Below are positions 2,922 through 42,416 of a stretch of DNA of 64,000 nt, one piece after another. The translations under genes were made by a program, and so were the position numbers. The number at the start of each line of letters is the position of its first letter. The first letter of the stretch is position 1. Source of the stretch: Parcubacteria group bacterium M10-OD1-1 (lineage in GTDB: Bacteria > Patescibacteriota > Minisyncoccia > Moranbacterales > UBA2206); NCBI GenBank assembly GCA_003056145.1, contig LSNL01000001.1, positions 73,351 through 137,350 of the forward strand, read 5' to 3'. Under the pieces are notes generated by a model, which saw only the letters and a list, made by a program, of their open reading frames with translations, searched no databases and had not been told where the DNA came from.

Positions 2922-3554
2922 TTAAAGTTGCTGAAAATACTTTTCCAAAATAAGCAAGGCTTTCTTAAAAGCTTTTCCTCTATGATTTATTCTAATCAAC
3001 TCACTTGCATCAAACTCAGCATTGGTTTTTTGATAATTGAGCTCTACTGGCAAAAATAGCGGAGCATAGCCGAAGCTCTTTGTTCCTCTTGGCTCTAAGG
3101 CAAGTCTCCCATGCCATTTCCCTTCTACTGTTTCGACAAACTTTGTTTTGGGATCAAAAATAGCTACTGAGCAATGATAATGACAACTTCTTTTTTCATC
3201 ATCAAGAAAATCCTTCATTTCCGCCAAAACTTTTTGATTGTTCGCTTCGTCTGTTTTTTCTTTAGAATATCTGGCTGAATATACTCCTGGTGCACCATTA
3301 AGCGCATCAATGCAAATTCCACTGTCATCAGCTAATGTTATCATATTTAAAGCTTCTCCGATTACAATCGCCTTAATTAACGCATTTCCTTCAAAGCTTT
3401 TTGCATTTTCTACGATTTCCAAATCTGGAATTTGATCGCGAAATTCAGATAGAAACCTAATATTAAAATCAGAGTCAGAAAAAATATCCGCAATTTCTCG
3501 CGCTTTACCTTTATTCTCAGTGGCAACTAAAATTTCTTTTTTTAACTTGGTCAT
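2922..3554 (-). CDS. rdgB: Non-canonical purine NTP pyrophosphatase (dITP/XTP), Ham1/RdgB family
   Basis: 210 aa. N-terminal ILVATENKGKAREI matches the Ham1 'ATxNxGKxxE' motif. Size and overall conservation fit RdgB. Confidence 0.7.
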   Translation of the reverse strand: MTKLKKEILVATENKGKAREIADIFSDSDFNIRFLSEFRDQIPDLEIVENAKSFEGNALIKAIVIGEALNMITLADDSGICIDALNGAPGVYSARYSKEKTDEANNQKVLAEMKDFLDDEKRSCHYHCSVAIFDPKTKFVETVEGKWHGRLALEPRGTKSFGYAPLFLPVELNYQKTNAEFDASELIRINHRGKAFKKALLILEKYFQQL

Positions 3555-9751: not shown

Positions 9752-10035
9752 ATCTTCTTTAGCATAAAAAATATAATAACTTCAGTCAAGAGCCTAAAAG
9801 TATAAGAAAGTTAAGTAAATTATGATTTTTACTTTGAGCTAAAAAACTGTTTAAAAAGAAGCAATGTGATATAATGAAATTAGTTTAAAAAAGAATTTTT
9901 TTATTAAGTAGTAGCAGAAATTAAATAAATAATAGGTTATAAGTTACCGAATAGAGGAAGGTCCAGTCTATTGGAATAAGGACTAGTATTAGTAAAGAAT
10001 AGAAATAGACTAAAAAATTTAAACAGAAATATATA

Positions 10036-12066
10036 ATGAGTGTCTCTAATTTTTTAAATAAACTTAAAACTAAACCAGATATATGGTTCTTTTCGGTTTT
10101 TTTATTGACTTTTACTCTTAATATTAGAAAAGTATTATTTTACTTTCCTCAACAAGGAACATTTAATGAATATACTGGAATATATGTTTATATGTCAGAT
10201 ATATTCTTATTATTAACCATAGGTTTATGGTTAATATCATTATATTACAATAATATATTTAAATTGTCAAGGGATAAGCTGTGGATAACTTATTTTTTCT
10301 CTAAAAAATATCTAATAATCCCCTTAGCTCTAGTTATATGGTCATTTATATCTATTTTTTGGTCTAGCTATCAGTCCATAGCTTTTTTTAGATCAATAAA
10401 GCTATTGGAATTTTACTTACTTTACTTATATGTAATTTTTAGATTTAGTCCTTTTTTCTTTATTAAACAAGACTATGATAATAAAATAAAGGAAGGGGAA
10501 AAAATATTAGAAGTTAACCAATTGAATGTACTGAAAAATGTTCCACGTGGAACATTTTTTAATTTTAAATATAAAGAAATAATCCGATATTTCTTTCTGA
10601 CGATTGTTGGTATAAGTGTAATTCAATCAATTATTGCCATTAATCAGGTAATTATTCAAAAATCAGTGGGTTTAGGCGCTTTGAGAGAAAGTTTTATATC
10701 TCCTAGCTTACCAGGAGTAGCTAAAGTGATTTTAGGAGGAGATAAATATATTAGAGCTTATGGTTTAATGCCTCATCCTAATATTTTAGGTGGTTTTTTG
10801 TTGTTTTCAATAGTAATAAGTCTACTCTACTTAAAATTGTTCCACGTGGAACAATTCGCTTTTGTTGAAAAAGGCGGGATGGCTTCAAAAAAGGATGGAA
10901 GTAAAAGTAATAGACTTGTCGGATTGAAAATGTTCCACGTGGAACATTTTCAAAAGAAAAGTAGTTTTTTTAACTCAGTAATGTTCCACGTGGAACATTT
11001 TAAGAAAAAATATTTTTCACCGCCTTCGTCTCAAGAACAAATTGTTCCACGTGGAACAATTTTAAGTAAAATCTGGCATGTAGTTAGATGGCGAGGTATG
11101 ATGAAAGTATGTTTTTTAGATAGCTACATTTTTATTAAAAAGTTTGTTAAAAAAGATAAATGGCTTATTAAAGCCTTTATTTTAATTCAAGTCCTAGCTC
11201 TTTTTTTAAGTTTCTCCAAATCGGCAATTATAGGTTTAGTTATTTCTTTAATTTATATTGTATATAAATTAAATGTTCCACGTGGAACATTTATATTGCA
11301 ATGGAAAAAAATAAGATTAGTAACTAGCTTAAGATATTTTCGCATATCAATACTGATGATATTAGTGATATGTTCCTTTATAATAATATTTCTAAAGCCA
11401 GATTTTAATACTGTATTTTTTCAATCATTACGAGAACGTTTATTTTATCTAAATGTTTCACGTGGAACAATTTTAAGTAGTCCGATTTTGGGAATTGGAT
11501 CAGGACAATTTGTGATAAATATCCCTTATTTCTCCCAAAATGTTGTTTTGCCTTGGGAATATCAACCAGTGCATAATGTTTTTCTACTGGTTTGGAGCGA
11601 ATTAGGAATAATTGGAGTAGTTTTGTTTTCTTGGTTTATTTTAAAATTGTTCCACGTGGAACAATTTAATTTGCTTAAAAAAGATAACTTAACTTCAAAG
11701 AAAGATGAAAATAAAAATAAAAAGTTCCTCGGATTAAAAATGTTCCACGTGGAACATTTTGAGAAAAAAGAATCATTATTGCATGTAGTTAAAGAGACAA
11801 TTGTTCCACGTGGAACAAATGAACATTTTGAAAAAAATAGGAATAAAGAAATTAATAGTATAGCTAAAAGAAACAAGAAAGATAATATATTATACAATAA
11901 GAATAGATATTTGTCAATGAATTATCTTCTTATTTATTTTCAGGGAATATTATTGGGTTTCGTTTTTATTATGCTTTTTGACCATTATTTGTGGGATATT
12001 CAGCAAGGTAGCGTCTTGTTTTGGCTAGTTTGCGGATTTATTGTTGGAAATAAGAAAGTGTGTTAA
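10036..12066 (+). CDS. O-antigen-ligase-like membrane protein carrying ten in-frame palindromic insertions and an internal duplication
   Basis: 676-aa uninterrupted ORF. N-terminus is polytopic membrane. Ligase motifs appear twice (MPHPNILGGFLLFS…LYLKLFHVEQF and PVHNVFLLVWSELGIIGVV…FILKLFHVEQF). The C-terminus resembles the neighbouring ligase paralogs. Confidence 0.5.
   Translation: MSVSNFLNKLKTKPDIWFFSVFLLTFTLNIRKVLFYFPQQGTFNEYTGIYVYMSDIFLLLTIGLWLISLYYNNIFKLSRDKLWITYFFSKKYLIIPLALVIWSFISIFWSSYQSIAFFRSIKLLEFYLLYLYVIFRFSPFFFIKQDYDNKIKEGEKILEVNQLNVLKNVPRGTFFNFKYKEIIRYFFLTIVGISVIQSIIAINQVIIQKSVGLGALRESFISPSLPGVAKVILGGDKYIRAYGLMPHPNILGGFLLFSIVISLLYLKLFHVEQFAFVEKGGMASKKDGSKSNRLVGLKMFHVEHFQKKSSFFNSVMFHVEHFKKKYFSPPSSQEQIVPRGTILSKIWHVVRWRGMMKVCFLDSYIFIKKFVKKDKWLIKAFILIQVLALFLSFSKSAIIGLVISLIYIVYKLNVPRGTFILQWKKIRLVTSLRYFRISILMILVICSFIIIFLKPDFNTVFFQSLRERLFYLNVSRGTILSSPILGIGSGQFVINIPYFSQNVVLPWEYQPVHNVFLLVWSELGIIGVVLFSWFILKLFHVEQFNLLKKDNLTSKKDENKNKKFLGLKMFHVEHFEKKESLLHVVKETIVPRGTNEHFEKNRNKEINSIAKRNKKDNILYNKNRYLSMNYLLIYFQGILLGFVFIMLFDHYLWDIQQGSVLFWLVCGFIVGNKKVC
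10534..11818. repeat. Ten dispersed copies of a 16-bp perfect palindrome TGTTCCACGTGGAACA inside one gene, often extended to 18-26 bp by A/T runs
   Basis: Cores at 10539, 10838, 10931, 10982, 11043, 11274, 11454 (variant gtttcac), 11648, 11741 and 11802. Spacing is irregular (59-300 bp). The palindrome has no stop in any frame, giving the peptide motifs VPRGT / FHVE(H/Q)F / CSTWN. Confidence 0.9.
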
Positions 12067-12089
12067 TCTTAAATTAATCTTATTTTAAG

Positions 12090-12183
12090 TAAGACTAAGA
12101 CTAAGACTAAGACTAAGACTAAGACTAAGACTAAGACTAAGACTAAGACTAAGACTAAGACTAAGACTAAGACTAAGACTAGA
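12090..12183. repeat. Hexanucleotide microsatellite (TAAGAC)x15.5
   Basis: Perfect tandem repeat directly visible in the sequence, starting 24 bp after the stop of the palindrome-bearing gene and ~110 bp upstream of the next ORF. Confidence 0.95.
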
Positions 12184-12293
12184 TTTTAGATGTCTTAGTG
12201 AATAAAATTATTTGTTTTTAATTTTAAATATAATTATTTTTTAGAGAGCTATCATTTTTTTCAAGTTCTTTATAGAGATTACCATAATTCAGG

Positions 12294-13496
12294 ATGGATA
12301 GAGATTATTATCGAAATATTCCCCTTTTGTATATTTACAGTATATTTATTAAGCGGGTTTCGCAACCTATTATTATTTTATATTTTTTGCTTAATAGGTT
12401 GAGTTTTGCTCAAATAGGGATATTAGCTGCGACAACGCTTGTTGTTCAGATGACGACAGATATTTATGGAGGGATATTTGCAGATACTTATGGAAGAAAA
12501 GCTACACTTTTATTACATTCGGTTTTCGGGGCTATAACGATGTTATTTTATTTTATTGGAAATTCTTTTCCGTGGTTCTTTTTAGCAAGTATTATGTATG
12601 GAATTGCTGGGGCATTTATAACTGGGACAAGAAATTCCATTCTTTATGATACACTAATAAAACTTAATAGGGTGGTTGAATTTAAAAAATTCAATGGAAG
12701 AGTTTTGTTATATTCACATATAATCAATGCTTTAGTGCTTTTAATGATTCCTGTTATGTATACTTTTAACGTTAAATTGCCATTTCTTTTTGGTATTGGA
12801 TTTTTTCTGATTTCATTTATTCTGGCGCTTTTCTTTATTGAACCGCAGTTGGAAAAAAAATCAGAGAGGGCTTTACCAGTGTATGGTACTAAAATTATTG
12901 AAGCGTTAAGAGAAATTAAGCTAAATAAAAAATTGATAATTGCTATTCTTCTTTCTATGTTTACAGCTTCTTTTATTTTTATGGGAGTTGGATATATACA
13001 GCCTCTTTTGAAAATTTCTAAATTACAAGTTGTTTATTTTGGTGTTGTTTATGCATTAATGAGTGGATTAATGGGGATTGGTGGACTGATTACGCATAAA
13101 CTAGAAAAGTACTTTACTCAAGAAAGATTATTAATTTTGGGGCTCGGAGGTATTACTATAAGCTTTTTGGGATTTTCCTTTAGTGTAGGAGTAGGGATTA
13201 TCTTGGCTGTTTTAATATTGAAACTTTCTGAAGGTTTTAATCGGATTATATTAGAAGATGAGATTAATAAAAATATAGAGTCAAAGAATAGAACGACAAT
13301 TTTATCTGTGACTAGTTTATCCAAAACGCTGGCTACTAGTGGATTAATACTTATTTTTGGTTTTATTTCAGATTTAGTTGGTGTTCAGCATATGTTTAAC
13401 TATGCCTTAGGATTATTTTTTGTTATAATTATTGTAACTTGGATTCTTGTTAATAATATTAAACGAGCGAAAAGAAGAGAATATGGCGTAAATTGA
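12294..13496 (+). CDS. Major facilitator superfamily transporter
   Basis: ~11-12 TM segments. MFS motif A GGIFADTYGRKATLL lies between TM2 and TM3. The exact start is uncertain. Confidence 0.6.
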   Translation: MDRDYYRNIPLLYIYSIFIKRVSQPIIILYFLLNRLSFAQIGILAATTLVVQMTTDIYGGIFADTYGRKATLLLHSVFGAITMLFYFIGNSFPWFFLASIMYGIAGAFITGTRNSILYDTLIKLNRVVEFKKFNGRVLLYSHIINALVLLMIPVMYTFNVKLPFLFGIGFFLISFILALFFIEPQLEKKSERALPVYGTKIIEALREIKLNKKLIIAILLSMFTASFIFMGVGYIQPLLKISKLQVVYFGVVYALMSGLMGIGGLITHKLEKYFTQERLLILGLGGITISFLGFSFSVGVGIILAVLILKLSEGFNRIILEDEINKNIESKNRTTILSVTSLSKTLATSGLILIFGFISDLVGVQHMFNYALGLFFVIIIVTWILVNNIKRAKRREYGVN

Positions 13497-25971: not shown

Positions 25972-26931
25972 TTAGGATAAGGACTGAGTTTTAGAATGAA
26001 AAGTTTTATGAATTTCTTTAAGGCGAAGATTAGTTAAATGAGTATAAATTTGAGTTGTAGTGATAGAGGAATGTCCTAGCATTTCTTGAACACTTCTAAT
26101 ATCAGCTCCATTAAGTAATAAATCAGTAGCAAAAGAATGACGCAAAGTGTGCGGATGAACATTTTTAATAACGCCAGCTTTAGCAGCATAGTATTTAACT
26201 ATTCGTTGAATTGAACGAGGAGATAGTCGTAAATTAGCTGAAGAATTATTTTTTGGAGAAAGTTTTTTTGAGGAGGCAAATTTTTTTAATCCTTTTGTAT
26301 CTCTAATGAAAAGGGCAGGGTCAAGATCATTTCTTTTTTGAAGATAATTTGTAACAGCTTGAGTGGCAGTTTGAGAAACAAAAACGACTCTAATTTTACT
26401 TCCCTTGCCACGAATACTCAACTCGCCATGGCATTTATCAATTTTATCTCTATTAATGCTAATTAATTCGGAAACCCGAAGCCCAGTAGAGAATAGTAAT
26501 TCTAAAATAGCTCTGTCTCGAAGACTTTTAAAACTAGATCCAGAAGCTGAATTTAATATTCTTTTAACTTCGGTGGTTTCTAAAAAATCAATAGCTCTTT
26601 CGGGGACTTTTCCAATTTCAACTTTTTCAGCGGGGAGAGTGGAAACATTTTGTTTAGCTAAATATTTTAAAAAACTACGAATAGCAATTATATAATAGGT
26701 TTGAGTACTCTTTTTTAAGTATTCCTTTCTTTGATTTTTCTGATGATTAAGATAAAGGCGAAAATTTCTTAATAAATTATCATTAATCTCTTTGGCTTGA
26801 GTAATTTTAGCCCAATTAAAAAATTTTTCTAAATAACGATTATAATTTTCAATAGTTTTTGGGGAATGACCTTTTTCAATTTCTAGATATTCTAAAAATT
26901 GTTTTTTAAATTGCTGAATGTTCATAGGCAA
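25972..26931 (-). CDS. Tyrosine site-specific recombinase, XerC/XerD family
   Basis: C-terminal catalytic box HTLRHSFATDLLLNGADIRSVQEMLGHSSITTTQIYTHL and Xer-like N-terminal core-binding domain. Carries a ~25-aa K/S-rich insertion. Confidence 0.8.
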   Translation of the reverse strand: MPMNIQQFKKQFLEYLEIEKGHSPKTIENYNRYLEKFFNWAKITQAKEINDNLLRNFRLYLNHQKNQRKEYLKKSTQTYYIIAIRSFLKYLAKQNVSTLPAEKVEIGKVPERAIDFLETTEVKRILNSASGSSFKSLRDRAILELLFSTGLRVSELISINRDKIDKCHGELSIRGKGSKIRVVFVSQTATQAVTNYLQKRNDLDPALFIRDTKGLKKFASSKKLSPKNNSSANLRLSPRSIQRIVKYYAAKAGVIKNVHPHTLRHSFATDLLLNGADIRSVQEMLGHSSITTTQIYTHLTNLRLKEIHKTFHSKTQSLS

Positions 26932-32268: not shown

Positions 32269-32556
32269 TAAAGAAAATCAAAAATACGTTCTAAAAATTA
32301 GGAATAAATTTGAAAATCTTTCAATTTAATTTTATCGTAGCATTTTTTTAGAGAAATTATAAGAGGAAAAGTAAAAAAAACAGAAATATAAATTTTAATT
32401 TAAAAATTATTTAAAGCTGATATTAAAGGTGACTGGACAAAAACAAAATTTTATGTTAATTTTTAAAAGTAATTATTTAACTAGCAAATATTGGTTCAGG
32501 GGAATTTTTAAAATAACTAAGCATTTCCTTTGCGACGAGTATTTGGCCGAAAAAAT

Positions 32557-32826
32557 ATGGCTTTAACCAGCAAACAAAAAGAGAAAGTGACTAAAGAAGT
32601 AAAAAGGCATGAAAAAGATAATGGTTCTCCAGAATATCAGATTGCTCTTTTTTCAGAAAAAATTAAGAAATTAACTACTCATTTAAAAAAGAACAAAAAA
32701 GACTTTCATTCCAGAAGAGGATTACTAAAAATGGTCGCCAAAAGAAAGAAATTGATGAGTTATTTAAAGAAAACTAACGAAAAAGCTTATAAGGTTATTA
32801 TCAAAAAACTTAAATTAAAAGGATAA
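32557..32826 (+). CDS. rpsO: 30S ribosomal protein S15
   Basis: MALTSKQKEKV…GSPEYQIALFSEKIKKLTTHLKKNKKDFHSRRGLLKMVAKRKKLMSYL matches uS15. The ORF-track start at 32530 is probably too far upstream. Confidence 0.85.
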   Translation: MALTSKQKEKVTKEVKRHEKDNGSPEYQIALFSEKIKKLTTHLKKNKKDFHSRRGLLKMVAKRKKLMSYLKKTNEKAYKVIIKKLKLKG

Positions 32827-32841
32827 GCTAATAAAAAACAA

Positions 32842-32864
32842 AAACAGGTGAAAGCCTGTTTTTA
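32842..32864 (+). terminator. Intrinsic terminator after rpsO
   Basis: aaacagg-tgaaag-cctgttt followed by a T-run. Confidence 0.65.
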
Positions 32865-32873
32865 TCTAAAAAT

Positions 32874-33368
32874 ATGATATATAAAGAACAACGAGTAGGT
32901 GTTTTAGTAGATATACAAAATTTATATTATTCAGCTAAAGTACTTTATCAAAAAAAAGTTAATTTTGGGGCAGTTTTAAAAGCAGCTATTGAGGATAGAA
33001 AAATTATTAGATCCATTGCTTATGGGATAAAAACTCAAGAAGGACAAGAAGATAAATTTTTTGAAGCTTTAGAAAAACAAGGTTTTGAAGTTAAAACTAA
33101 AGATCTTCAAATTTTTCCTGGTGGAGCTAAAAAGGGTGATTGGGATGTTGGTATTGCGGTAGATGCTATCAAAATGTCTAAAAATTTAGATGTTATTGTT
33201 ATTGTTTCTGGCGATGGAGATTATATTCCATTAGTAAAATATATTCAAGGCACAACTGGCTGTCGAGTAGAAGGAGCGGCTTTTTTAGAATCAACAAGCG
33301 GTAAATTAGTAGAAGAGCTAGATAATTTTATTAATTTAAGTGCTAGTAAGAAAAAATTTCTTATCTAA
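32874..33368 (+). CDS. NYN-domain (LabA-like) protein
   Basis: VGVLVDIQNLYYSAK … DVIVIVSGDGDYIPLV are the hallmarks of PF01936 NYN/LabA. Confidence 0.65.
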   Translation: MIYKEQRVGVLVDIQNLYYSAKVLYQKKVNFGAVLKAAIEDRKIIRSIAYGIKTQEGQEDKFFEALEKQGFEVKTKDLQIFPGGAKKGDWDVGIAVDAIKMSKNLDVIVIVSGDGDYIPLVKYIQGTTGCRVEGAAFLESTSGKLVEELDNFINLSASKKKFLI

Positions 33369-33644: not shown

Positions 33645-33715
33645 GCGGGTGTCGTATAGTGGCAGTACAGGAGTCTCCAAAACTTCTAACGGGGGTTCGA
33701 TTCCCTCCACCCGTG
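33645..33715 (+). tRNA. tRNA-Trp (CCA)
   Basis: GCGGGTGTCGTATAGTGGCAGTAC-AGGAGT-CTCCAAA-ACTTC-TAACGGGGGTTCGATTCCCTCCACCCGTG. Anticodon CCA. Confidence 0.7.
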
Positions 33716-33862
33716 CATTAAAAAATAACCAAGAAAAGAGGCTCATTTAGGGCTATTCTTTGGTTCTAGTATTTTGATAGAAGATAGGACGTTAGAACTT
33801 TTTATAGTAATATAGAAATATAAAAAATGTTTTTTATATTATATTGAGAATGAATATTTAAA

Positions 33863-34792
33863 GTGATATTTATGTATTATATTTTACATCAACACTACGA
33901 GTCTGTTCTTAGGTTAGTAAAAATCGTCAACCCAAATAAACTAGATGAGTTTCATAGTATTTTTAACAGTAGTAGTTTTTTAAAATTAAATCCTCAATCA
34001 AAATTGAAATTTTTACAAAAATCATTACCAATTCCTGATAGTAAATATTTTACCCTAGAAAATTTTATTAAAGTTGTAGAACAAACCGTTGAAGAGATGG
34101 TACAACAAAATATATCTCATATTGATTTAAGAATTAGCTTGCACCTTGAAAGGTGGAAAGATATTTTTGATATTTGTCATGCTAGAAATATATACGATAA
34201 AGTACTTGCTAGACATATAGATAAAACTATTTTTTTTATAGCTGCCATAGATATGAAAAAATCAGAAGCAGAAATAGAGAAGAGCATAGGAGCGTTGTTT
34301 AAAAAAAAGACTCTTGAATCGATTGTTGGCATTGATATTACCATGTATAAAGAGGATGTTTATAAGTTTAATAAATACTATAAAACATTGCTTAGTTTGA
34401 GGAATGAACATAAAAAAAAGATTATTATGCATTTAGGGGAGTTTACTACAAATGATATTAATTTCGAAATCATACGTAAAATAAAGCCAGATAGAATAGC
34501 TCATGGAATAACATTATTGGATTCTCCAAAATTGTGTGAATTTATTAAACATAATAATATATGTTTAGATATGTGCCCAGTTAGTAATAAAGTACTAGGA
34601 GTCGTTGACTGGGAAAAGCATAATCCCATTAAAAAAGCTACTGATTTGGGTATATCTGTAACTATAAACACTGATGATCCAATAATGTTTGATACAAACA
34701 TCAATAAGGAAATTAAAACCGCCAATTTAAGTCAACAACAATTAAATTTATTAATAGAAAACAGTAAAAAATATTCAGCGGAAAATATTTGA
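33863..34792 (+). CDS. Adenosine/AMP-deaminase-family metal-dependent hydrolase
   Basis: Deaminase blocks HIDLRISLH, MHLGEF (like HAGE), DRIAHGITL (like RIGHG) and SVTINTDDPIMFDT (like SLNTDDP). Confidence 0.55.
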   Translation: MIFMYYILHQHYESVLRLVKIVNPNKLDEFHSIFNSSSFLKLNPQSKLKFLQKSLPIPDSKYFTLENFIKVVEQTVEEMVQQNISHIDLRISLHLERWKDIFDICHARNIYDKVLARHIDKTIFFIAAIDMKKSEAEIEKSIGALFKKKTLESIVGIDITMYKEDVYKFNKYYKTLLSLRNEHKKKIIMHLGEFTTNDINFEIIRKIKPDRIAHGITLLDSPKLCEFIKHNNICLDMCPVSNKVLGVVDWEKHNPIKKATDLGISVTINTDDPIMFDTNINKEIKTANLSQQQLNLLIENSKKYSAENI

Positions 34793-34893
34793 CAGTTAGT
34801 ATCTATTGTTATATTATTTATTGTTGCAAAGAGTTTTTTGCAACAATGTTAAATAGTACTTTAAAAACAATATTATATAAAGAGAGGTGCATT

Positions 34894-35304
34894 ATGAAAG
34901 AAAGAGTTAGGGCAATAATTAAAGAAGGTGAAAATATTCTCTTAATTCACAGAATAAAAAAAGGAAGAGGATATTGGGTTTTTCCTGGAGGGGGTACTAA
35001 AAAAACTGATATTGATCATAAGTCAGCATTGATTAGGGAATGCGATGAAGAACTTGGTGTTAGTGTTCGGGTTGGTGGTTTATTTATCACTTATGAATTT
35101 GGTGAAGCCGGTAAAGAACAGCACGAATATTTTTATTTTTGTGAAATTACTAGCGGTGAACTTGGAACTGGCTCTGGTCCAGAATTTCAAAAAGGAACAC
35201 ATTACGAAGGTGTGTATGCATTAGAATGGATACCACTGAAAGATTTTTTAACAAAAAACATTCAACCTGAAAAGGTAAAGAAAGAATTGCAAAAGGAGAC
35301 TTGA
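34894..35304 (+). CDS. NUDIX hydrolase (paralog A)
   Basis: MKERVRAIIKEGENILLIHR…GYWVFPGGGTKKTDIDHKSALIRECDEELGV Nudix box. The ORF track extends upstream to 34789, but the RBS-less leader suggests the ATG at 34894. Confidence 0.6.
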   Translation: MKERVRAIIKEGENILLIHRIKKGRGYWVFPGGGTKKTDIDHKSALIRECDEELGVSVRVGGLFITYEFGEAGKEQHEYFYFCEITSGELGTGSGPEFQKGTHYEGVYALEWIPLKDFLTKNIQPEKVKKELQKET

Positions 35305-35305
35305 A

Positions 35306-36463
35306 ATGCAAATTGCTATTAATGGTGTTGACGGGGTTGGTAAAAGCCAGCAAATAAAGCTTCTGCAACTCTATAATGCTGGAAGTTTTAATTTTACGGG
35401 TTCATTAACTAAATACTCTTCAATATGGCCCGAATTAAAAAGTCATGACATGTTCAACTGGTGGTTTAAGGAAGTAGAATTTGACGAGTTTCTGAATATT
35501 GTTTTCGAATCATTAAACACAAGACATTCAGAATTTGAAGATTCGGTTGTAATCCTGGATCGAGGAACGTTGATGTTTAAAGCGGTATGTGCAGCAACTA
35601 TGTCAGTAAGAATGGGACTTGAACTTCTTGATTCCATGAAAGAAATTGATTTGCGTTTTGCCAAAGGTCTCTTTTATGGTCTAGACGAAGAACATAATAT
35701 TCTTCTGGAACCAGATGTTAGATATCAAAGTTCTATAAAACCATATATTTCACTATTACAAAATGAATCAAATAATTTCACGGAGGAGGAAAATGAATTT
35801 TATCTCAGTTATCAGAATCTTCTTAAGGAAGCGATGGTAATTTACTTTAGAGATGAAGCAATTAACAGGATAACAGTAGATAGATCAATCTGTGAAATTC
35901 AAGACAAACTGAGATTATTGATCAATGAATTAGCGGATGTTTCATTGCCCGAAATATGCAGTGGTATAAAGCAAGTTATTGGCTTTGGAGGCTTGAGTGA
36001 ATGTGGAAAAAGTAGTTTTGCGCAACATTTTTACAAAAAGAAGGGATATTACAGGTTGAAACTTGGGTATTTCGTAGAGATTCTTAAACGGCGTTATGAG
36101 AAAGATACGCCAGAAAGTGTTGCGATGGAATTTCTGCATTTTTGTAAATCGCATTACTATATTGAAAATTTTACACTCGAGAGCCTGCATGAACCATATA
36201 CCCCAGCCTTTCTTAAATTGTTGTTTGGATCTAGGTTTAAAATTGCATATTTAGATGCTCCTTTCGATGTAAGATGTAAACGCGCTTCTATTGAGAAAGG
36301 AGTTTCATTGGTTGAAGCTGAAAAAGAAACAAGAAGGAAGGATCTTATAAAAGAAGGAAGGGGGGCGAAGATAGTCAGTGAAATAGCTGATATTAAGTTT
36401 AACAACTCCAATGGAAAACATTGTGAGAATATGCTAAAATTTGAAAAGGCAGTTATGCCTTGA
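35306..36463 (+). CDS. Two-domain P-loop nucleoside/nucleotide-kinase-like protein
   Basis: N-terminal INGVDGVGKS plus a DRG(T) motif (dTMP-kinase/dNK-like). Second P-loop GFGGLSECGKSS with YLDAPFDVRCKR (CMP/shikimate-kinase-like). Noticeably higher GC and different codon usage than the flanks. Confidence 0.4.
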   Translation: MQIAINGVDGVGKSQQIKLLQLYNAGSFNFTGSLTKYSSIWPELKSHDMFNWWFKEVEFDEFLNIVFESLNTRHSEFEDSVVILDRGTLMFKAVCAATMSVRMGLELLDSMKEIDLRFAKGLFYGLDEEHNILLEPDVRYQSSIKPYISLLQNESNNFTEEENEFYLSYQNLLKEAMVIYFRDEAINRITVDRSICEIQDKLRLLINELADVSLPEICSGIKQVIGFGGLSECGKSSFAQHFYKKKGYYRLKLGYFVEILKRRYEKDTPESVAMEFLHFCKSHYYIENFTLESLHEPYTPAFLKLLFGSRFKIAYLDAPFDVRCKRASIEKGVSLVEAEKETRRKDLIKEGRGAKIVSEIADIKFNNSNGKHCENMLKFEKAVMP

Positions 36464-36536
36464 GAAATTTTAGTACCAGGAGGAGATGCTGAAATGATCT
36501 CCTCCTATTTTTTTTAAAATTAAACTTATTAGAGTT

Positions 36537-36968
36537 ATGTTGCATAGAGTTCGTGCTATTATTTTAAAAAATAATCAGCTGCTAACAATTAAAAGAGTAA
36601 AAACAAATATTACATATTTTGTTTTTCCTGGAGGTGGTGTAGAATCGGGAGAAGGATTAGAGGAGGCCATTAAGAGAGAATGCGAAGAAGAGCTTGGTGT
36701 TAATATTGATATTGTTAAAAAATTTATTTCAAAGAGATTTGATATAGGTGAAATAGAACAGGTAGAACATTTTTATATATGTGAAATTGTTTCAGGTGAG
36801 CTTGGCACAGGAGATGGTCCAGAGTATAATAATAACTTGGGTTATGAAGGAACTCATAAAATAGAATGGCTCGACATTTTTGATTTGTTGAATTATGACT
36901 TAAGACCCAAAGAGATTGCTCTAAAATTAATAAATAATTTGAAGGATGATAAAAAATTTAAGAGTTAA
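36537..36968 (+). CDS. NUDIX hydrolase (paralog B)
   Basis: MLHRVRAIILKNNQLLTIKR…YFVFPGGGVESGEGLEEAIKRECEEELGV, co-linear with paralog A. Confidence 0.6.
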   Translation: MLHRVRAIILKNNQLLTIKRVKTNITYFVFPGGGVESGEGLEEAIKRECEEELGVNIDIVKKFISKRFDIGEIEQVEHFYICEIVSGELGTGDGPEYNNNLGYEGTHKIEWLDIFDLLNYDLRPKEIALKLINNLKDDKKFKS

Positions 36969-37989
36969 TAAAAATAGAAATAATACGAATGGAATATTTT
37001 CTATCAAAGATCAAAAATTTTTTTATAAAATTCTTTGTTTGGACGATTACGAGAAGGAATTGAAAGGGTATCAATTCATTAAAGAGGCGTATCCTGTGGC
37101 AAATTTAATATTTCATGGGTATATAAATAATAAAAAGAACGGACTTTTGATTTTTGAATACGAGAAAACTATTGAGAAAAATAGAGGATTATTAATTGAT
37201 ATTTTTTCAAGTAGAAAGAGTTATAGAGTAGATGTAGAAATTTTTGATAGCATATTAGATGTTTATAAAAAAGCATTTCAAAATAGTTTTAAACGAACTA
37301 GTTCAAAAACTTCCGACATATTTTTTAGAGACAGGATAAAAACAAGACTGAAAACTTATTATAAGAAATTTTTTTTCAAAGAAATATATAAATTAAAATT
37401 TAAGTTTAAAAAATGGGAAATTAGAAATATTGAATTTAAAAAAATAATTAGACTTTTAGAAAAGTTTTTAATTAACAAGAGAAACGAGTATTGTGTTTTA
37501 TCACAATGTGATCCAAATGATTTAAATATTGGAATAAAACCAATTATTCTCGACTATCTTGGCGGGGGATATAATCCCATAATGGCTGAATTCGCAATTC
37601 TTTTTTGGTATTGTATTGCTCAGGGAAATTATTTTTCAGTCGTTTATAATAAAAATGAATATACTAATCATTCAATTATTATTAAAAAGATTGATAAGGT
37701 AATTTTTGATAAAGGAAAATTAAATCATTTTCCCAATAAAAAAAGAATTATTTTTTTGATTAATTACATAGATAAAGTAATTGATCCATTGATAAAAAAA
37801 ATGCCAGACAATTATGATTGGTATGAAGATTTTAAAAATTATTTAGCTATGAGAATTATTTCTGTTTTTAATATTTCAAAAATGAAAGCTAAGGATAAAA
37901 ATTTATCCTTAGCTTATTTAGATATTTTTTATAATCAATTAAAAATAAATAAAACCTCTCAATTAATAGAGGTGATTAAAAATTTATGA
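36946..37989 (+). CDS. Hypothetical protein, possibly APH/choline-kinase-like phosphotransferase fold
   Basis: QCDPNDLNIG resembles the catalytic-loop HxDxxxxN, and ILDYLGGG resembles the DFG/'IDxE' metal-binding motif. Very AT-rich, K/N/I-rich. Weak call. Confidence 0.3.
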   Translation: MIKNLRVNKNRNNTNGIFSIKDQKFFYKILCLDDYEKELKGYQFIKEAYPVANLIFHGYINNKKNGLLIFEYEKTIEKNRGLLIDIFSSRKSYRVDVEIFDSILDVYKKAFQNSFKRTSSKTSDIFFRDRIKTRLKTYYKKFFFKEIYKLKFKFKKWEIRNIEFKKIIRLLEKFLINKRNEYCVLSQCDPNDLNIGIKPIILDYLGGGYNPIMAEFAILFWYCIAQGNYFSVVYNKNEYTNHSIIIKKIDKVIFDKGKLNHFPNKKRIIFLINYIDKVIDPLIKKMPDNYDWYEDFKNYLAMRIISVFNISKMKAKDKNLSLAYLDIFYNQLKINKTSQLIEVIKNL

Positions 37990-38693
37990 GCAGTCTAACA
38001 ATAGAAAAATACAGAGAAAAAGAAGGGGCTTTCTTTGATTATTTAAGCAAGAATTTAAAGGAAAATTTATTGTTTTATGCTGTAGCAGGAAGCGTGTCAC
38101 GAGGTGATATTATTCCTGGTTGGAGTGATATAGATGTACTAGTTGTTATTCAGGAATATAATAAAAAAAATACATCATTTATCAATAAGGCACTATTAAG
38201 GGATTCTTCAAATATTAAGATCGGCTTAACGTTATTTTCGTTTGACGACTTTACGAATATTAAATTATTCAAGGATCCTAAGACTTTATATTCAATTGAT
38301 TTAATTGATCAAGGAATTTGTAAACCCAAAATAATCGATAAAAAAACAATAAATAGCATAAATAAAATCAAGAAAATATCAGTTTGGTATAATAAGGATA
38401 GCTTAGCGAGTATTATTCATAGTTATAAGCATGCTTTGTTTCCAATTAATAAATATGATGAAAAAATAGTTTATAAAAAACTAGTGACTATATTAAAAAT
38501 TATTTTAAAACAAAAAGGTATAACAGCTCATAGTTATAGCGATGTTGTAAGCATATCCAAAAGTAAATTAAATGGTTTTGATATAAAATTAAAAACCCCA
38601 ATTTATATAATGAAAAATTTAAATACATCCTTAAGGCGTTATAATGATTATGTTAAGTTTCTTGCATGGCTAGAAGATTATCCAAAATTTTAA
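37986..38693 (+). CDS. Pol-beta-superfamily nucleotidyltransferase
   Basis: LFYAVAGSVSRGDIIPGWSDIDVLVV is the GS-x9-13-DxD motif of minimal / aminoglycoside-lincosamide-type nucleotidyltransferases. Confidence 0.5.
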   Translation: MSSLTIEKYREKEGAFFDYLSKNLKENLLFYAVAGSVSRGDIIPGWSDIDVLVVIQEYNKKNTSFINKALLRDSSNIKIGLTLFSFDDFTNIKLFKDPKTLYSIDLIDQGICKPKIIDKKTINSINKIKKISVWYNKDSLASIIHSYKHALFPINKYDEKIVYKKLVTILKIILKQKGITAHSYSDVVSISKSKLNGFDIKLKTPIYIMKNLNTSLRRYNDYVKFLAWLEDYPKF

Positions 38694-38706
38694 ATAGATA
38701 TATTGT

Positions 38707-39795
38707 ATGAATAAAAAAATAATTGTAAAGCTTCCCTACATAACACAGGAAATATTCATAGGTGAAAAAATGCTTGATTTTGTTGTTTCAAAAATTAAAA
38801 GTAGGAAATATGATAAGTATATTTTAATTGTTGATATAAATGCCAAAAAAGATAGGAGGAATTATTTTAACAGACTGATTAACGATTTAAATATAGTAGA
38901 CATTATAGTGCTACAGCCAACACCAAATTACAAGAGTTTTAAAGAGTGTGAAAAAGTTATAAAGAGACTGATAAAAGTTAAAGCCTCAAGAAAAAGTTGT
39001 TTAATATCAGTGGGCGGAGGTTATGTTTCTGATATAACCGGATATGTCGCTTCAAATTATATGCGGGGTATTGGTTTCGTCCAAATATCAACCACTTTAA
39101 TGAGTATGGTCGATGCAGTAATTGGTAAGGTGGCAATTAATTATGGAAATTATAAAAATTTACTTGGGTCATTTTACTCTCCAAAGTTTGTATTTAGTGA
39201 TTTAAATTTTTTATCGACATTAAGAAAAGAAGAAAAAGTTTTGGGGTTGTCGGAGGTTTGGAAACATGCGTTGATAAAGAGAGACGAGGATATTGTTAAA
39301 AAGATTGAAAGCTATTTGTTAAATTTTTCAGATAAACATTATTCGGAATTTATTCATTTTTCGATGAGGGTAAAAAAATCCTGCGTAGAGAACGATTATG
39401 ATGATAGAATTGGTAGTCATAAGGCTTTGAGTTTGGGACATACTTTTGCAAATTTTTTAGAAAGAAAATCCAAAATGAGGCATGGTGTTGCTGTGATGTA
39501 TGGAATTATTTTTGCTACAATATTATCAAAAAGATTGGGGAAATTATCTTTAGAAAACTATACTAGAATTATTAAAACTGCTAAGAGATTTGAAAAAAAT
39601 ATTGGCTTATTGAAAAGTATACAAAAGGATTTAAAAGTTAAAAAAGTTTTGGAAAGTTTTTTTTCTGATAAGATTAGTGAAAATAATTCTTTGAATTTTG
39701 TTTTACCTATTGATTCAGGATATTTAATATATAAAAACATACCAGAAAAAATAGCTACAGAAGCCTTAGAAATATTTAAGAAATTAGAACTCTAG
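38707..39795 (+). CDS. 3-dehydroquinate-synthase-like sugar-phosphate cyclase
   Basis: ISVGGGYVSDITGYVASNYMRGIGFVQISTTLMSMVDAVIGKVAINYGNYKNLLGSFYSPKFVF matches the DHQS NAD/substrate-binding core. LGHTF…RHGVAVMYG matches the metal-binding His motifs. Confidence 0.65.
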   Translation: MNKKIIVKLPYITQEIFIGEKMLDFVVSKIKSRKYDKYILIVDINAKKDRRNYFNRLINDLNIVDIIVLQPTPNYKSFKECEKVIKRLIKVKASRKSCLISVGGGYVSDITGYVASNYMRGIGFVQISTTLMSMVDAVIGKVAINYGNYKNLLGSFYSPKFVFSDLNFLSTLRKEEKVLGLSEVWKHALIKRDEDIVKKIESYLLNFSDKHYSEFIHFSMRVKKSCVENDYDDRIGSHKALSLGHTFANFLERKSKMRHGVAVMYGIIFATILSKRLGKLSLENYTRIIKTAKRFEKNIGLLKSIQKDLKVKKVLESFFSDKISENNSLNFVLPIDSGYLIYKNIPEKIATEALEIFKKLEL

Positions 39796-40088
39796 TATCT
39801 TTTGGTGCGGGAATATAAATATATTTAGTCTTCTTTTTAAATATAGTTCTAATATCCTTTGCTAGGGCGTGCATTAAAGAAACATTGGTTGATAAAGCTG
39901 GTATTTCTTATTTTACTAAGAAGCTTAAGATAATGGTTTTTGTAGCGAGGACAATCTTTTTGGCTGTTTCAATAAATAAAAAATAATTCTTTGAGTAAAA
40001 TTCTAAATGAGAGGAAAATAATTATTAATTTTTCATTGAACATAATTATTTGTCAATAAATTCAAAAAAAAGTTTGTATATAAATTTT

Positions 40089-40310: not shown

Positions 40311-42416
40311 ATGGAACAAAAAAAATGGTCCCTTCAAATCGGAGGGAGAATTTTAGAAATTGAAACTGGATTATTAGCTAACCAAGCTAGTGGATCAGTA
40401 ACTTGTCGTTACGGGGATACGGTTGTTTTAGCAACGGCGGTTATGAGTAAAAATGCCTCTCGGGTGAGTGGCTATTTTCCGTTAATGGTTGATTTTGAAG
40501 AACGTTACTATGCCGCTGGTAAAATCAAGGGTTCTAGATTTATTAAAAGAGAGGGTCGTCCTTCTGATACAGCTATTCTTTCTGGGCGAGCAGTTGATAG
40601 AACTATTAGACCACTTTTTAACTCTAGAATGAGAAATGATGTGCAAGTTATTTGCACGGTGCTTTCTTATGATGGAGAAAATGATCCAGATGTAATAGCA
40701 ATGATTGCGGCTTCTGTTGCATTATCTATTTCTAATATTCCTTGGGATGGTCCAATTGCAGCGGTAAGAGTAGGCAAAACAGGAGAAGAAATGATTTTAA
40801 ATCCAGTCAATGGTGAAGTAACAGATGGAGAGATAGATCTTTTAGTGGCTGGAACAAAAGATAAAATAAATATGATTGAGTGTGGAGCTAAAGAAGTGGC
40901 CGAAGGAGAAATATTTCAAGCTTTTGAATTTGCTCAAGAGGCGATTGCTAAAATTGCTATTTTTATTGAAGCTATACAAAAAGAAGTAGGCAAAGAAAAA
41001 ACTATTCCTATTTTAATTCAAGGAACACCAGAATTTGAAGAAAAAATTAAAGAAATTCTATTAGCGGAAGGATTAGCAGAGGCTTTGTATAATAAAGATA
41101 AGAATATTATTGAAGAAAAAACTAAACTTATCCAAGAAAAAGTTCAGCAATATATTGAAGAAAATTATTCAGAAGGAATAGAAAAATTAAAAGAAATTGC
41201 AGAATTAGTATCAGAAAAAGTAGCGGACAATATTGTACATAAAAACATTTTAGAAAAAGAGCAACGACCAGATGGAAGAAAATTAACTGAAATTAGAAAA
41301 ATTGATTGCCAAACTGGGATTCTTCCTAGAACTCACGGGACAGGCTTATTTACTAGAGGAGAAACACAAGCTTTAACAGTGGCTACTTTAGGTTCTCCGG
41401 GAGACGAACAAATTATTGATACTATGGAAGTGGATACTAAAAAAAGATATATTCATCATTATAATTTTCCTCCTTTTTCAGTTGGCGAAACTCGTCCAAT
41501 GAGAGGTCCAGGTAGACGGGAGATTGGACACGGAGCCTTAGCAGAAAAAGCTTTAATTCCAGTTTTACCATCTAAAGAAGAATTTCCTTATACGATGCTT
41601 TTAGTAAGTGAGGTACTTTCTTCTAATGGTTCTTCTTCAATGGCTTCTACTTGTGGTTCCACGCTTTCTTTAATGGACGCTGGTGTTCCAATTAAGCGTC
41701 CAGTGAGTGGTATTGCGATGGGAATAATTGTTAAAGATAAAAATAATTTTAAAATTTTAACTGATATTCAAGGGTTAGAAGATCATTATGGAGATATGGA
41801 CTTTAAAGCGGCTGGTACAGAAAAAGGGTTAACTGCTATTCAAATGGATGTTAAAGTAGAAGGTGTAACTTTACCTATGTTAGAAGCTGTCTTAAAACAA
41901 TCTCATGGTAATCGAATAGAAATTTTAGGTAAAATAGCAGAAGCGATTAGTGAGCCAAGAAAAGAAATGTCGCAATACGCACCAAGAATTATAACATTAC
42001 ATATCAATCCTGATAAAATTAGAAATGTTATCGGAGCGGGAGGAAAAATAATCAATGCTATTATTGACGAAACAGGAGTCCAAATTGATATTGAAGATGA
42101 TGGATCTATTTTCATTACTTCAGCCGATAAAACTTCTGCTCAAAAAGCGGTAGAATGGATTAATAATTTAACTCATGAAGTAAAAACTGGTGAAAATTTC
42201 AAAGCTAAAATTATAAAGATTATGAACTTTGGAGCTTTTGCTGAAATTTTACCAGGACAAGAAGGCCTAATTCATATTTCTGAGATTAGCGAAAAAAGAA
42301 TTGAGAAAGTAGAAGATGTTTTAAAGGTTGGAGATATAGTGCCAGTTAAAGTAAAAGAAATTGATCAACAAGGGAGAATAAGTTTATCTATGAAAGCAGT
42401 CAAAGAGGATAATTAG
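40311..42416 (+). CDS. pnp: Polynucleotide phosphorylase
   Basis: 701 aa with two RNase PH domains, KH (…IGAGGKIINAI…) and a C-terminal S1 domain (…FGAFAEILPGQEGLIHISEI…). Confidence 0.9.
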   Translation: MEQKKWSLQIGGRILEIETGLLANQASGSVTCRYGDTVVLATAVMSKNASRVSGYFPLMVDFEERYYAAGKIKGSRFIKREGRPSDTAILSGRAVDRTIRPLFNSRMRNDVQVICTVLSYDGENDPDVIAMIAASVALSISNIPWDGPIAAVRVGKTGEEMILNPVNGEVTDGEIDLLVAGTKDKINMIECGAKEVAEGEIFQAFEFAQEAIAKIAIFIEAIQKEVGKEKTIPILIQGTPEFEEKIKEILLAEGLAEALYNKDKNIIEEKTKLIQEKVQQYIEENYSEGIEKLKEIAELVSEKVADNIVHKNILEKEQRPDGRKLTEIRKIDCQTGILPRTHGTGLFTRGETQALTVATLGSPGDEQIIDTMEVDTKKRYIHHYNFPPFSVGETRPMRGPGRREIGHGALAEKALIPVLPSKEEFPYTMLLVSEVLSSNGSSSMASTCGSTLSLMDAGVPIKRPVSGIAMGIIVKDKNNFKILTDIQGLEDHYGDMDFKAAGTEKGLTAIQMDVKVEGVTLPMLEAVLKQSHGNRIEILGKIAEAISEPRKEMSQYAPRIITLHINPDKIRNVIGAGGKIINAIIDETGVQIDIEDDGSIFITSADKTSAQKAVEWINNLTHEVKTGENFKAKIIKIMNFGAFAEILPGQEGLIHISEISEKRIEKVEDVLKVGDIVPVKVKEIDQQGRISLSMKAVKEDN

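Follow-up and report, generated by a model that had tools for sequence, protein, structure and literature searches.

Among the closest described systems is the acarbose pathway, in which a cyclase, the kinase AcbU, the HAD phosphatase AcbJ and the nucleotidyltransferase (NTase) AcbR lead to GDP-valienol, which is then used by a (pseudo)glycosyltransferase (PMC9200736). The locus described here is a cluster of seven open reading frames (ORFs), g1 to g7, packed tightly at positions 33863-39795 and all on the + strand of a 64,000-nucleotide stretch (the window) from Parcubacteria group bacterium M10-OD1-1 (contig LSNL01000001.1, positions 73,351 to 137,350). The window has a G+C content of ~30%, contains typical Patescibacteria housekeeping genes, and matches contig LSNQ01000012.1 of assembly GCA_003056095.1. 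Cyclase, kinase and NTase genes recur together in this locus and its relatives, with an optional phosphatase and glycosyltransferases, and we therefore propose, with moderate confidence, that the operon makes a nucleotide-activated carbocyclic pseudo-sugar (cyclitol). The seven genes most likely constitute a real operon, horizontally mobile and present in many ultra-small bacteria of the candidate phyla radiation (CPR).

The last gene, g7 (38707..39795, +; 362 amino acids [aa]), encodes a sugar-phosphate cyclase resembling 3-dehydroquinate synthase (DHQS) and belonging to a clade of CPR bacteria and DPANN archaea. Matches to Pfam PF01761 and PF24621 (122 and 81 bits), both above the gathering score, place it in the DHQS-like superfamily. 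Against TIGR01357, the aroB equivalog model, it scored 253.2 bits, below the cut-off of 305. In the clade, the NAD-binding GGG/D/TT motifs, the metal ligands E183/H245/H259 and the lysines K141/K186/K223 are invariant (invariant columns of g7: G103-105, D109, K141, N151, E183, K186, H245, and H259). An alignment with Bacillus-type and Escherichia coli AroB indicated that R130, D146, K152, N162, K197, and K250 (Aspergillus nidulans numbering) are retained in the clade, and the superfamily residues E194, H271, and H287 (metal ligands), K152, N162, and K197 are kept in g7. R264, N268, and H275 of the A. nidulans enzyme, which we take from the literature on structure 1DQS to be the ligands of the carboxylate and phosphate of 3-deoxy-D-arabino-heptulosonate 7-phosphate (DAHP), give way to H, S, and N in each of the 20 aligned clade members (34-100% identity). 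The AroB signature R..LN.GHT.GHA.E reads HKALSLGHTFANYLE in every clade member; in addition, the GGK loop has a one-residue deletion relative to AroB, and YQP is changed to YSP. Judged from these residues, g7 looks catalytically competent, yet not of the DAHP type, and the initial annotation was right to doubt, before the active site had been checked, that this homolog was an ordinary AroB.

The discriminating columns 250/264/268/275 were read from annotated reference genes of plasmid records, the references being one annotated Streptomyces synthase of 2-deoxy-scyllo-inosose (DOIS; L006) and two annotated sedoheptulose-7-phosphate cyclases (L007 and L008). These columns read K R N H in DHQS, K G E H in DOIS, M K/S D P in the two sedoheptulose-7-phosphate cyclases, H S D H in an ebo-type homolog, and K H S N in the g7 clade. 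The clade has neither the DOIS fingerprint (K250/G264/E268/H275, read as K/H/S/N) nor that of the 2-epi-5-epi-valiolone, demethyl-4-deoxygadusol, and 2-epi-valiolone synthases (EEVS, DDGS, and EVS; M250/D268/P275, read as K/S/N). By sequence, its closest family is AroB, at 29-37% identity; the best PDB sequence matches of g7 are true DHQS, and the PDB entries for ValA and DDGS are the weakest. The more specific proposal made at first sight, a cyclase of the EEVS/DOIS/DDGS type, was thus not upheld. The sequence comparisons instead identify g7 as a member of a distinct, previously undescribed sugar-phosphate cyclase clade of neither the AroB nor the DOIS nor the EEVS/DDGS type. Such a clade adds a fifth active-site fingerprint to the superfamily and predicts new substrate or product chemistry.

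Homologs of g7 in a collection of 5.8 billion proteins fell into two groups, one of about 50 Patescibacteria proteins at 34-100% identity and the other, comprising the rest, of ordinary AroB at about 30-37% identity. The scores dropped sharply between them, from at least 192 bits for the Patescibacteria to at most 156 bits for Bacillus-type AroB. In a neighbor-joining tree, the 47 signature-bearing sequences formed one clade, supported by 50 of 50 bootstraps, beside canonical AroB-like sequences. The K-H-S-N clade, which includes Woesearchaeota and Nanoarchaeota sequences, is restricted to Patescibacteria and DPANN archaea, and the presence of the same cyclase clade in the latter implies transfer to or from CPR bacteria.

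Relatives of the cluster were compared by BLAST of the window proteins against the ORFs of public contigs. At least 13 independent loci carry the gene set (the window, L002, L004, L011, L012, L014, L016, L017, L019, L028, L095, L096, and L098) at 30-80% protein identity, and at 30-54% in the more distant ones. Because the set is found in so many independent genomes and contigs, its co-linearity is not due to chance; the neighborhoods are conserved rather than dispersed in relatives, in agreement with the functional cluster that had been postulated. The intergenic spacing is likewise operon-like, ranging from a 23-bp overlap (g4/g5) to a 101-bp gap and including a 1-bp gap between g2 and g3, a 4-bp overlap between g5 and g6, and a 13-bp gap between g6 and g7. 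In the window, L011, L012, L016, L095, and L096, the order (type I) is deaminase, NUDIXa (g2), g3, NUDIXb (g4), g5, g6, an optional carbamoyltransferase, an optional HAD phosphatase, and cyclase. In L002, L004, L014, L019, L028, and L017, it is NUDIXb, g5, g6, carbamoyltransferase, HAD phosphatase, cyclase, NUDIXa, and g3, without the deaminase (type II), and L098 displays yet another permutation. The units that are permuted are two modules, NUDIXa-g3 and NUDIXb-g5-g6-cyclase, the latter with or without the carbamoyltransferase and phosphatase between g6 and the cyclase. Both of these optional genes are absent from the window cluster; the same reduced form is conserved in L095 (59-74% identity), and the window cluster is therefore not a decayed copy.

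Several of the neighboring genes are also fused. Fusions of NUDIXa with g3 were found in L011 (532 aa), P0219, P0221, P0237, and P0262, and fusions of NUDIXb with g5 (~475 aa) in L004, L019, L028, and six database proteins (P0175-P0185). Fusions of g3 with the NTase occur in P0264 and L094. In L094 (IMGVR_UViG_2863349733_000003, 9880-12963), a contig listed as viral but of uncertain status, a g3-like dual kinase is fused to an NTase core that is followed by a weak g5-like stretch. An apparent NUDIX-DHQS fusion in L013 (9740-10931; P0023) was rejected, since only the first half of NUDIXa is joined to a cyclase that starts at about residue 44, its first 43 residues being absent, and that is also interrupted by a frameshift; a deletion, a pseudogene, or an assembly artifact is the probable cause. 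A literature search yielded no description of this cluster in CPR bacteria.

The K-H-S-N cyclases also occur in three other architectures. The first (L001, L022-L026, L033, L102, L105, and L160) comprises a SAM methyltransferase, a fusion of nucleoside diphosphate kinase (NDK) with a P-loop kinase, a fusion of NUDIX with a GT2 glycosyltransferase, a pol-beta NTase, the cyclase, and an additional gene of no assigned function. In an example of this type, L023 (5844-12056), a conserved protein of 320-330 aa with no detectable family is encoded on the opposite strand; kinship of the 320-aa gene with g5 was ruled out (hhalign probability, 0.8%). The second, from Woesearchaeota and Nanoarchaeota (L031, 9947-14355; L035, 5538-9800; L107, 5616-9872), contains the cyclase, an HprK-like P-loop protein, a methyltransferase, a 275-aa protein of no assigned function, a xylose-isomerase-like TIM barrel (a fold shared by inosose dehydratases and isomerases), and a NUDIX protein. 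The third was found on a groundwater metagenome contig (L099, 7035-11101) and consists of an APH-like kinase, a GT4 glycosyltransferase, and, after a 4-bp overlap, a 599-aa NTase-cyclase fusion. The first ~210 residues of this fusion match sugar-1-phosphate nucleotidylyltransferases of the MobA/GlmU type, the first 114 match inositol-1-phosphate cytidylyltransferase, and the remainder is a K-H-S-N cyclase. Upstream of these genes in L099 are those for a ThiF-like enzyme, a nitroreductase-like protein, and a 7TM histidine kinase. The cyclase and a kinase are the constants of the four architectures; only the DPANN type lacks an NTase, only the L099 type lacks NUDIX, and two of the four include a glycosyltransferase.

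The domains assigned by the initial annotation to the seven proteins all hold, five by Pfam/NCBIfam and those of g3 and g5 by AlphaFold2 (AF2) and Foldseek, the folds of these two having been predicted from alignments of homologs. The product of g5 (36946..37989, +; 347 aa) is a small-molecule kinase with the fold of aminoglycoside phosphotransferases (APH) and protein kinases. Sequence searches gave no match in Pfam (including PF01636), in the NCBIfam/curated APH models, or in the PDB. The AF2 model (pLDDT, 94.2) matched APH(9)-Ia, APH(4)-Ia, APH(3'), and N-acetylhexosamine 1-kinase (NahK) with a probability of 1.0 and TM scores of 0.5-0.6, and LicA was also among the structural neighbors. 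K28, E38, the catalytic D189-x4-N194, and D203 are invariant, as expected for this fold. Within the g5 coding region (37886-37915, - strand), there is a perfect 13-bp inverted repeat (AAGCTAAGGATAA/TTATCCTTAGCTT) followed by a minus-strand T-run, with a terminator-like score. The adjacent g6 (37986..38693, +; 235 aa) encodes a pol-beta-superfamily NTase, recognized by Pfam PF01909 (NTP_transf_2) in 12 of 13 orthologs and by the invariant motif G35-S ... W46-S-D-I-D50 (D48-I-D50); a PDB sequence search with g6 gave no match.

The product of g3 (35306..36463, +) has no Pfam match and only marginal sequence matches in the PDB. Its AF2 model (pLDDT, 92.6) consists of two tandem folds of the nucleoside monophosphate (NMP) kinase type, for which Foldseek retrieved the dTMP kinases 4nzy/2plr, adenylate kinases, and the adenylate-kinase-related 3lw7. 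The N-terminal half is dTMP kinase-like (GxDGVGKS, DRG), and the C-terminal half is adenylate kinase-like (GGLSECGKSS); both P-loops and the DRG motif are invariant, which places g3 among the NMP-kinase-fold proteins. The 58 members of the g3 family are all uncharacterized proteins of Patescibacteria, and this family and that of g5 (86 homologs) are confined to the cluster. Neither family has a Pfam model, and each can now be given a fold together with catalytic motifs and a pathway context.

The two NUDIX hydrolase paralogs are g2 ("a"; 34894..35304, +; 136 aa; Pfam NUDIX, 2e-13), the start of which was refined to 34894 from orthologs and public gene calls, and g4 ("b"; 36537..36968, +; 143 aa; Pfam NUDIX, 4e-15). 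The Nudix box of g4 is canonical (G-x5-E-x7-RE-U-x-EE-x-G-U) and conserved, and in that of g2, D replaces the first E and the spacer is 8 residues long in most orthologs, with the RE-x2-EE-x-G core kept in 13 orthologs. Both proteins weakly match the GDP-mannose mannosyl hydrolase (NudD/WcaH) model, and each has a fixed partner, g2 always adjoining g3 and g4 always adjoining g5.

The first gene, g1 (33872..34792, +; 306 aa; ORF open from 33863), the start of which was refined on the same grounds to 33872 (MYYILHQHYES), encodes an amidohydrolase of the adenosine/AMP deaminase family (Pfam PF00962, A_deaminase; 6e-27, 94.9 bits). It scored 104.3 bits against the adenosine deaminase equivalog TIGR01430, below the cut-off of 216.55; its best PDB matches are Plasmodium adenosine deaminases, and the catalytic motifs HxH, HLGE, AHG, and NTDDP are kept in orthologs. 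As for its being an adenosine deaminase-like neighbor of the cyclase, the family and motifs proved correct, but the gene occurs in one sub-lineage only, that of the type I clusters (beyond the window, L011, L012, L016, L095, and L096). An Rfam scan of the cluster revealed no riboswitch that would name a ligand, and a scan for promoters and terminators gave the same result as for shuffled sequence.

The genes that flank the cluster differ in every genome; L002 has restriction-modification genes there, and L004 has a transposase and an integrase. In the window, a tRNA-Trp gene (cca; 33645..33716, +; Rfam tRNA, 57.6 bits; ARAGORN) lies 150 bp upstream of the cluster and is a possible integration site. 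The 11-bp direct repeat CGTGCATTAAA occurs only twice in the 64 kb, at 33712..33722 (+), where it covers the tRNA 3' end plus 6 nt, and at 39868..39878 (+), 73 nt past the g7 stop codon. The two copies bracket exactly the seven genes, and the chance of a match of at least 11 bp is ~4%. This suggests that the cluster is an island inserted at tRNA-Trp, with repeats like att scars; no integrase is encoded inside the bracketed region. In bacteria, rpsO and pnp are usually neighbors in one operon. In the window, the 6-kb cluster sits between them together with the tRNA and a NYN-domain gene (32530-33368; 40311-42416), and neither pnp nor the NYN gene stands beside the cluster in any related locus. 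The NYN gene, absent from all of these loci, was rejected as a cluster member. Farther upstream, by 7 kb, a tyrosine recombinase of the Phage_integrase family (XerC/D-like; 25972-26931, -) lies by tRNA-Met and tRNA-Val and was not linked to the cluster. At 381-2858, 30 kb from the cluster, there are two tandem paralogous membrane proteins with O-antigen-ligase/IctB-like domains, which may be surface-glycan ligases and might provide acceptor machinery for an activated sugar.

From the gene content, folds, catalytic motifs, non-AroB fingerprint, conservation, permutation, and fusions described above, a route can be proposed in which the substrates, the order of steps, and the product are all putative. 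The NAD+- and metal-dependent g7 would cyclize a non-DAHP sugar phosphate, giving a carbocyclic ketone, a ring hydroxyl of which would be phosphorylated by g5. In relatives, the HAD phosphatase would remove another phosphate, and the NodU/TobZ-type carbamoyltransferase would O-carbamoylate the ring. The phospho-cyclitol, or a hydroxyl, would be coupled to an NMP by g6, and the two NUDIX enzymes, each tied to one kinase, would hydrolyze a nucleotide-linked intermediate or nucleoside di- or triphosphate (NDP or NTP) by-products. The released NMP would be rephosphorylated by g3, a role predicted for the NDK-kinase fusion in the architecture with the SAM methyltransferase, and g1 would deaminate an adenine-containing by-product or intermediate in its sub-lineage. 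The cyclitol logic is reinforced by L099, in which the NTase-cyclase fusion adjoins an APH-like kinase and GT4, and the nearest structures of g5, the aminocyclitol and sugar kinases APH(9), APH(4), and NahK, also support it. A precedent for NUDIX in a glycoconjugate pathway is NudD/WcaH of the colanic acid cluster, which acts on an NDP-sugar.

Several observations weigh against a pseudo-sugar product. An invariant lysine, K239, directly follows the His that replaces R264 and could bind a carboxylate or other acidic group, so that a DAHP-like or other ulosonate substrate is possible. The NTase-cyclase fusion was found on one metagenome contig only. Pol-beta NTases are not the usual family that makes NDP-sugars, and to our knowledge no member of the families in question has a known enzyme activity. 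The window cluster contains no glycosyltransferase, aminotransferase, dehydrogenase, or transporter, and thus no visible acceptor or export route. Finally, the three nucleotide-kinase-fold domains, the two MutT-like NUDIX proteins, and the adenosine deaminase homolog also fit a pathway centered on nucleotides.

Such a pathway, in which a nucleotide is the scaffold and an antimetabolite or modified nucleotide the product, is unlikely in our estimate, although it survives better than the other alternatives. In a logic like that of modified dNTPs in phages, NUDIX would convert NTP to NMP, the NMP would be modified, and g3 (or NDK plus kinase) would rebuild the NTP; g1 would deaminate adenine, and the DHQS-like enzyme would oxidize (with NAD+), eliminate phosphate, or form a carbocycle on a pentose phosphate. 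Three NMP kinase or NDK-type domains are associated with the cyclase clade, both MutT-like paralogs are kinase-fused in some genomes, the catalytic motifs of g1 are intact, and a fusion of the NTase with g3 exists (P0264 and L094), all of which such a scheme would explain. However, the base- or sugar-modifying enzymes usual in such pathways are absent, most clusters lack the deaminase gene, and we know of no DHQS-family enzyme that acts on a nucleotide. The glycosyltransferases in relatives and the sugar-1-phosphate NTase fused to the cyclase in one of them suggest that the substrate resembles a sugar and not a nucleoside.

Two further nucleotide-based explanations, defense and salvage, had been left standing by the initial annotation, and both are weakened. 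It is improbable that the cluster is an anti-phage or conflict island whose deaminase, NUDIX, and NTase deplete or poison nucleotides. The cluster does have the accessory, mobile character of such islands, with variable flanks, restriction-modification genes in L002, a transposase and an integrase in L004, and the tRNA and 11-bp repeats in the window, and weak PADLOC matches were obtained for NUDIX (candidate PDC-S07), the deaminase (the ADA domain of CARF-ADA), and the NTase (the generic core of CD-NTases). These are isolated domain-level or candidate matches, and no complete system in PADLOC-DB v2 was matched. A sensor or effector architecture is missing, known depletion systems would have no use for a cyclase, carbamoyltransferase, HAD phosphatase, or glycosyltransferase, and the phage contigs searched held no relative of the cyclase or g5, L094 being the only "viral" contig with any relative. 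Equally little credence is given to a nucleotide salvage or house-cleaning island, in a genome unable to produce its own nucleotides, in which the DHQS homolog and the APH-like kinase are unrelated passengers. Patescibacteria depend on salvage, and adenosine deaminase, NUDIX, and NMP kinases are classical salvage and sanitizing enzymes, but the supposed passenger, the cyclase, is the most constant member across the four architectures and is fused to an NTase in L099, the g3 and g5 families occur only in this cluster, and a separate RdgB/HAM1-type XTP/dITP pyrophosphatase for deaminated purine nucleotides is encoded in the window (2922-3554, - strand).

Resistance to aminoglycosides or aminocyclitols, in which the APH-like kinase and an NTase resembling aminoglycoside nucleotidyltransferases (ANT) would inactivate an external antibiotic and the other genes would be accessory, is very improbable: the best structural matches of g5 are the resistance kinases APH(9), APH(4), and APH(3'), and the size and N-terminal NTase core of g6 resemble those of ANT enzymes, but neither protein reaches any curated APH or ANT model, and, unlike resistance genes, both have stayed in strict synteny, in part through fusion, with NUDIX and cyclase genes over deep divergence. 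An ordinary aroB, encoding the 3-dehydroquinate synthase of the shikimate pathway, is hardly credible, for although the highest-scoring curated model and the top PDB sequence matches of g7 are those of true DHQS, relatives are publicly annotated as "3-dehydroquinate synthase," and K250 and a Lys beside position 264 are kept, the score lies short of the equivalog cut-off, R264, N268, and H275 are replaced throughout the clade, no aro gene adjoins the cyclase in more than 25 loci or was found among the window ORFs scanned, and Patescibacteria and DPANN archaea generally lack aromatic amino acid synthesis.

With the nucleotide-activated cyclitol retained as the preferred product, a more far-reaching version may be put forward, which we consider possible but doubtful. 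In this version, a private Patescibacteria/DPANN branch of cyclases makes a new carbocyclic pseudo-sugar that is phosphorylated, nucleotidylated, and, in relatives, carbamoylated, that possibly bears adenine, and that serves as a building block of the cell surface for host attachment or as an anti-host antimetabolite, the operon spreading as a tRNA-associated island. If true, no dedicated small-molecule biosynthetic pathway would have been defined for these ultra-small symbionts before this one. Even the general cyclitol model is surprising for organisms credited with hardly any biosynthesis. CPR bacteria and DPANN archaea are seen as metabolically minimal and host dependent, a picture that a conserved, private, mobile biosynthetic operon of 7 to 9 genes would change; such lineages would invest in a specialized metabolite or a surface decoration, which may mediate host interaction. 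All of the components are small soluble enzymes, and the hypothesis is therefore directly testable in vitro.

Of the enzymes and pathways known for comparison, AroB (TIGR01357; PDB 3clh, 5hvn, 1xag, and 1dqs) has the fold, the NAD+ and metal sites, and most catalytic residues in common with g7 and differs from it in genomic context. DOIS (BtrC type, PDB 2d2x) is, like g7, DHQS derived, with K250 kept and R264 lost, but has G264 and E268, the latter a residue linked to catalysis, where the g7 clade has H and S. Like g7, DOIS occurs together with APH-type kinases and, in clusters of the tobramycin type, alongside a TobZ-like carbamoyltransferase; unlike in the aminoglycoside pathways, there is no DegT-type aminotransferase or dehydrogenase near the cluster. 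The CDP-inositol route (IPCT/DIPPS) and the Lic-type route (LicA kinase plus cytidylyltransferase) likewise activate a (cyclic) polyol phosphate with a nucleotide, and the fused NTase domain of L099 matches IPCT and sugar-1-phosphate NTase models; the cyclase here is of the DHQS type, however, and not a myo-inositol-phosphate synthase, and the window contains no DIPPS- or LicD-type transferase. NudD/WcaH is also a small NUDIX protein inside a glycoconjugate pathway. Its similarity to g2 and g4 is at the family level only, and the present clusters have two NUDIX paralogs, which are individually coupled to, or fused with, a kinase or GT2.

The acarbose and validamycin clusters (AcbC/ValA, AcbM/AcbU/ValC, AcbJ, AcbR/VldB, and pseudo-glycosyltransferase) follow the same logic of a cyclase, one or more kinases, an optional HAD phosphatase, and an NTase, and glycosyltransferases are present in the sister architectures of this clade. 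The families differ: M-x-D-P cyclases, ROK/glucokinase-like kinases, and a GlgC/RmlA-type NTase stand against K-H-S-N cyclases, APH-fold and NMP-kinase-fold kinases, and a pol-beta-type NTase. The cluster lacks an aminotransferase, an epimerase, and a reductase and adds two NUDIX proteins and, in this lineage, a deaminase, and its hosts are ultra-small Patescibacteria (for the cyclase clade, also DPANN archaea) rather than actinomycetes. With analogous roles filled by other protein families and no glycosyltransferase in the window, the cluster falls outside the acarbose/validamycin type. The cyclitol-pathway logic invoked in the initial annotation accordingly stands in part: cyclase, kinase, and NTase remain the best fit, with the L099 fusion in its favor, and the kinases and the NTase come from families other than those of acarbose and validamycin. 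The operon works like a cyclitol-activation pathway but belongs to none of the acarbose/validamycin, aminoglycoside, or mycosporine cluster families.

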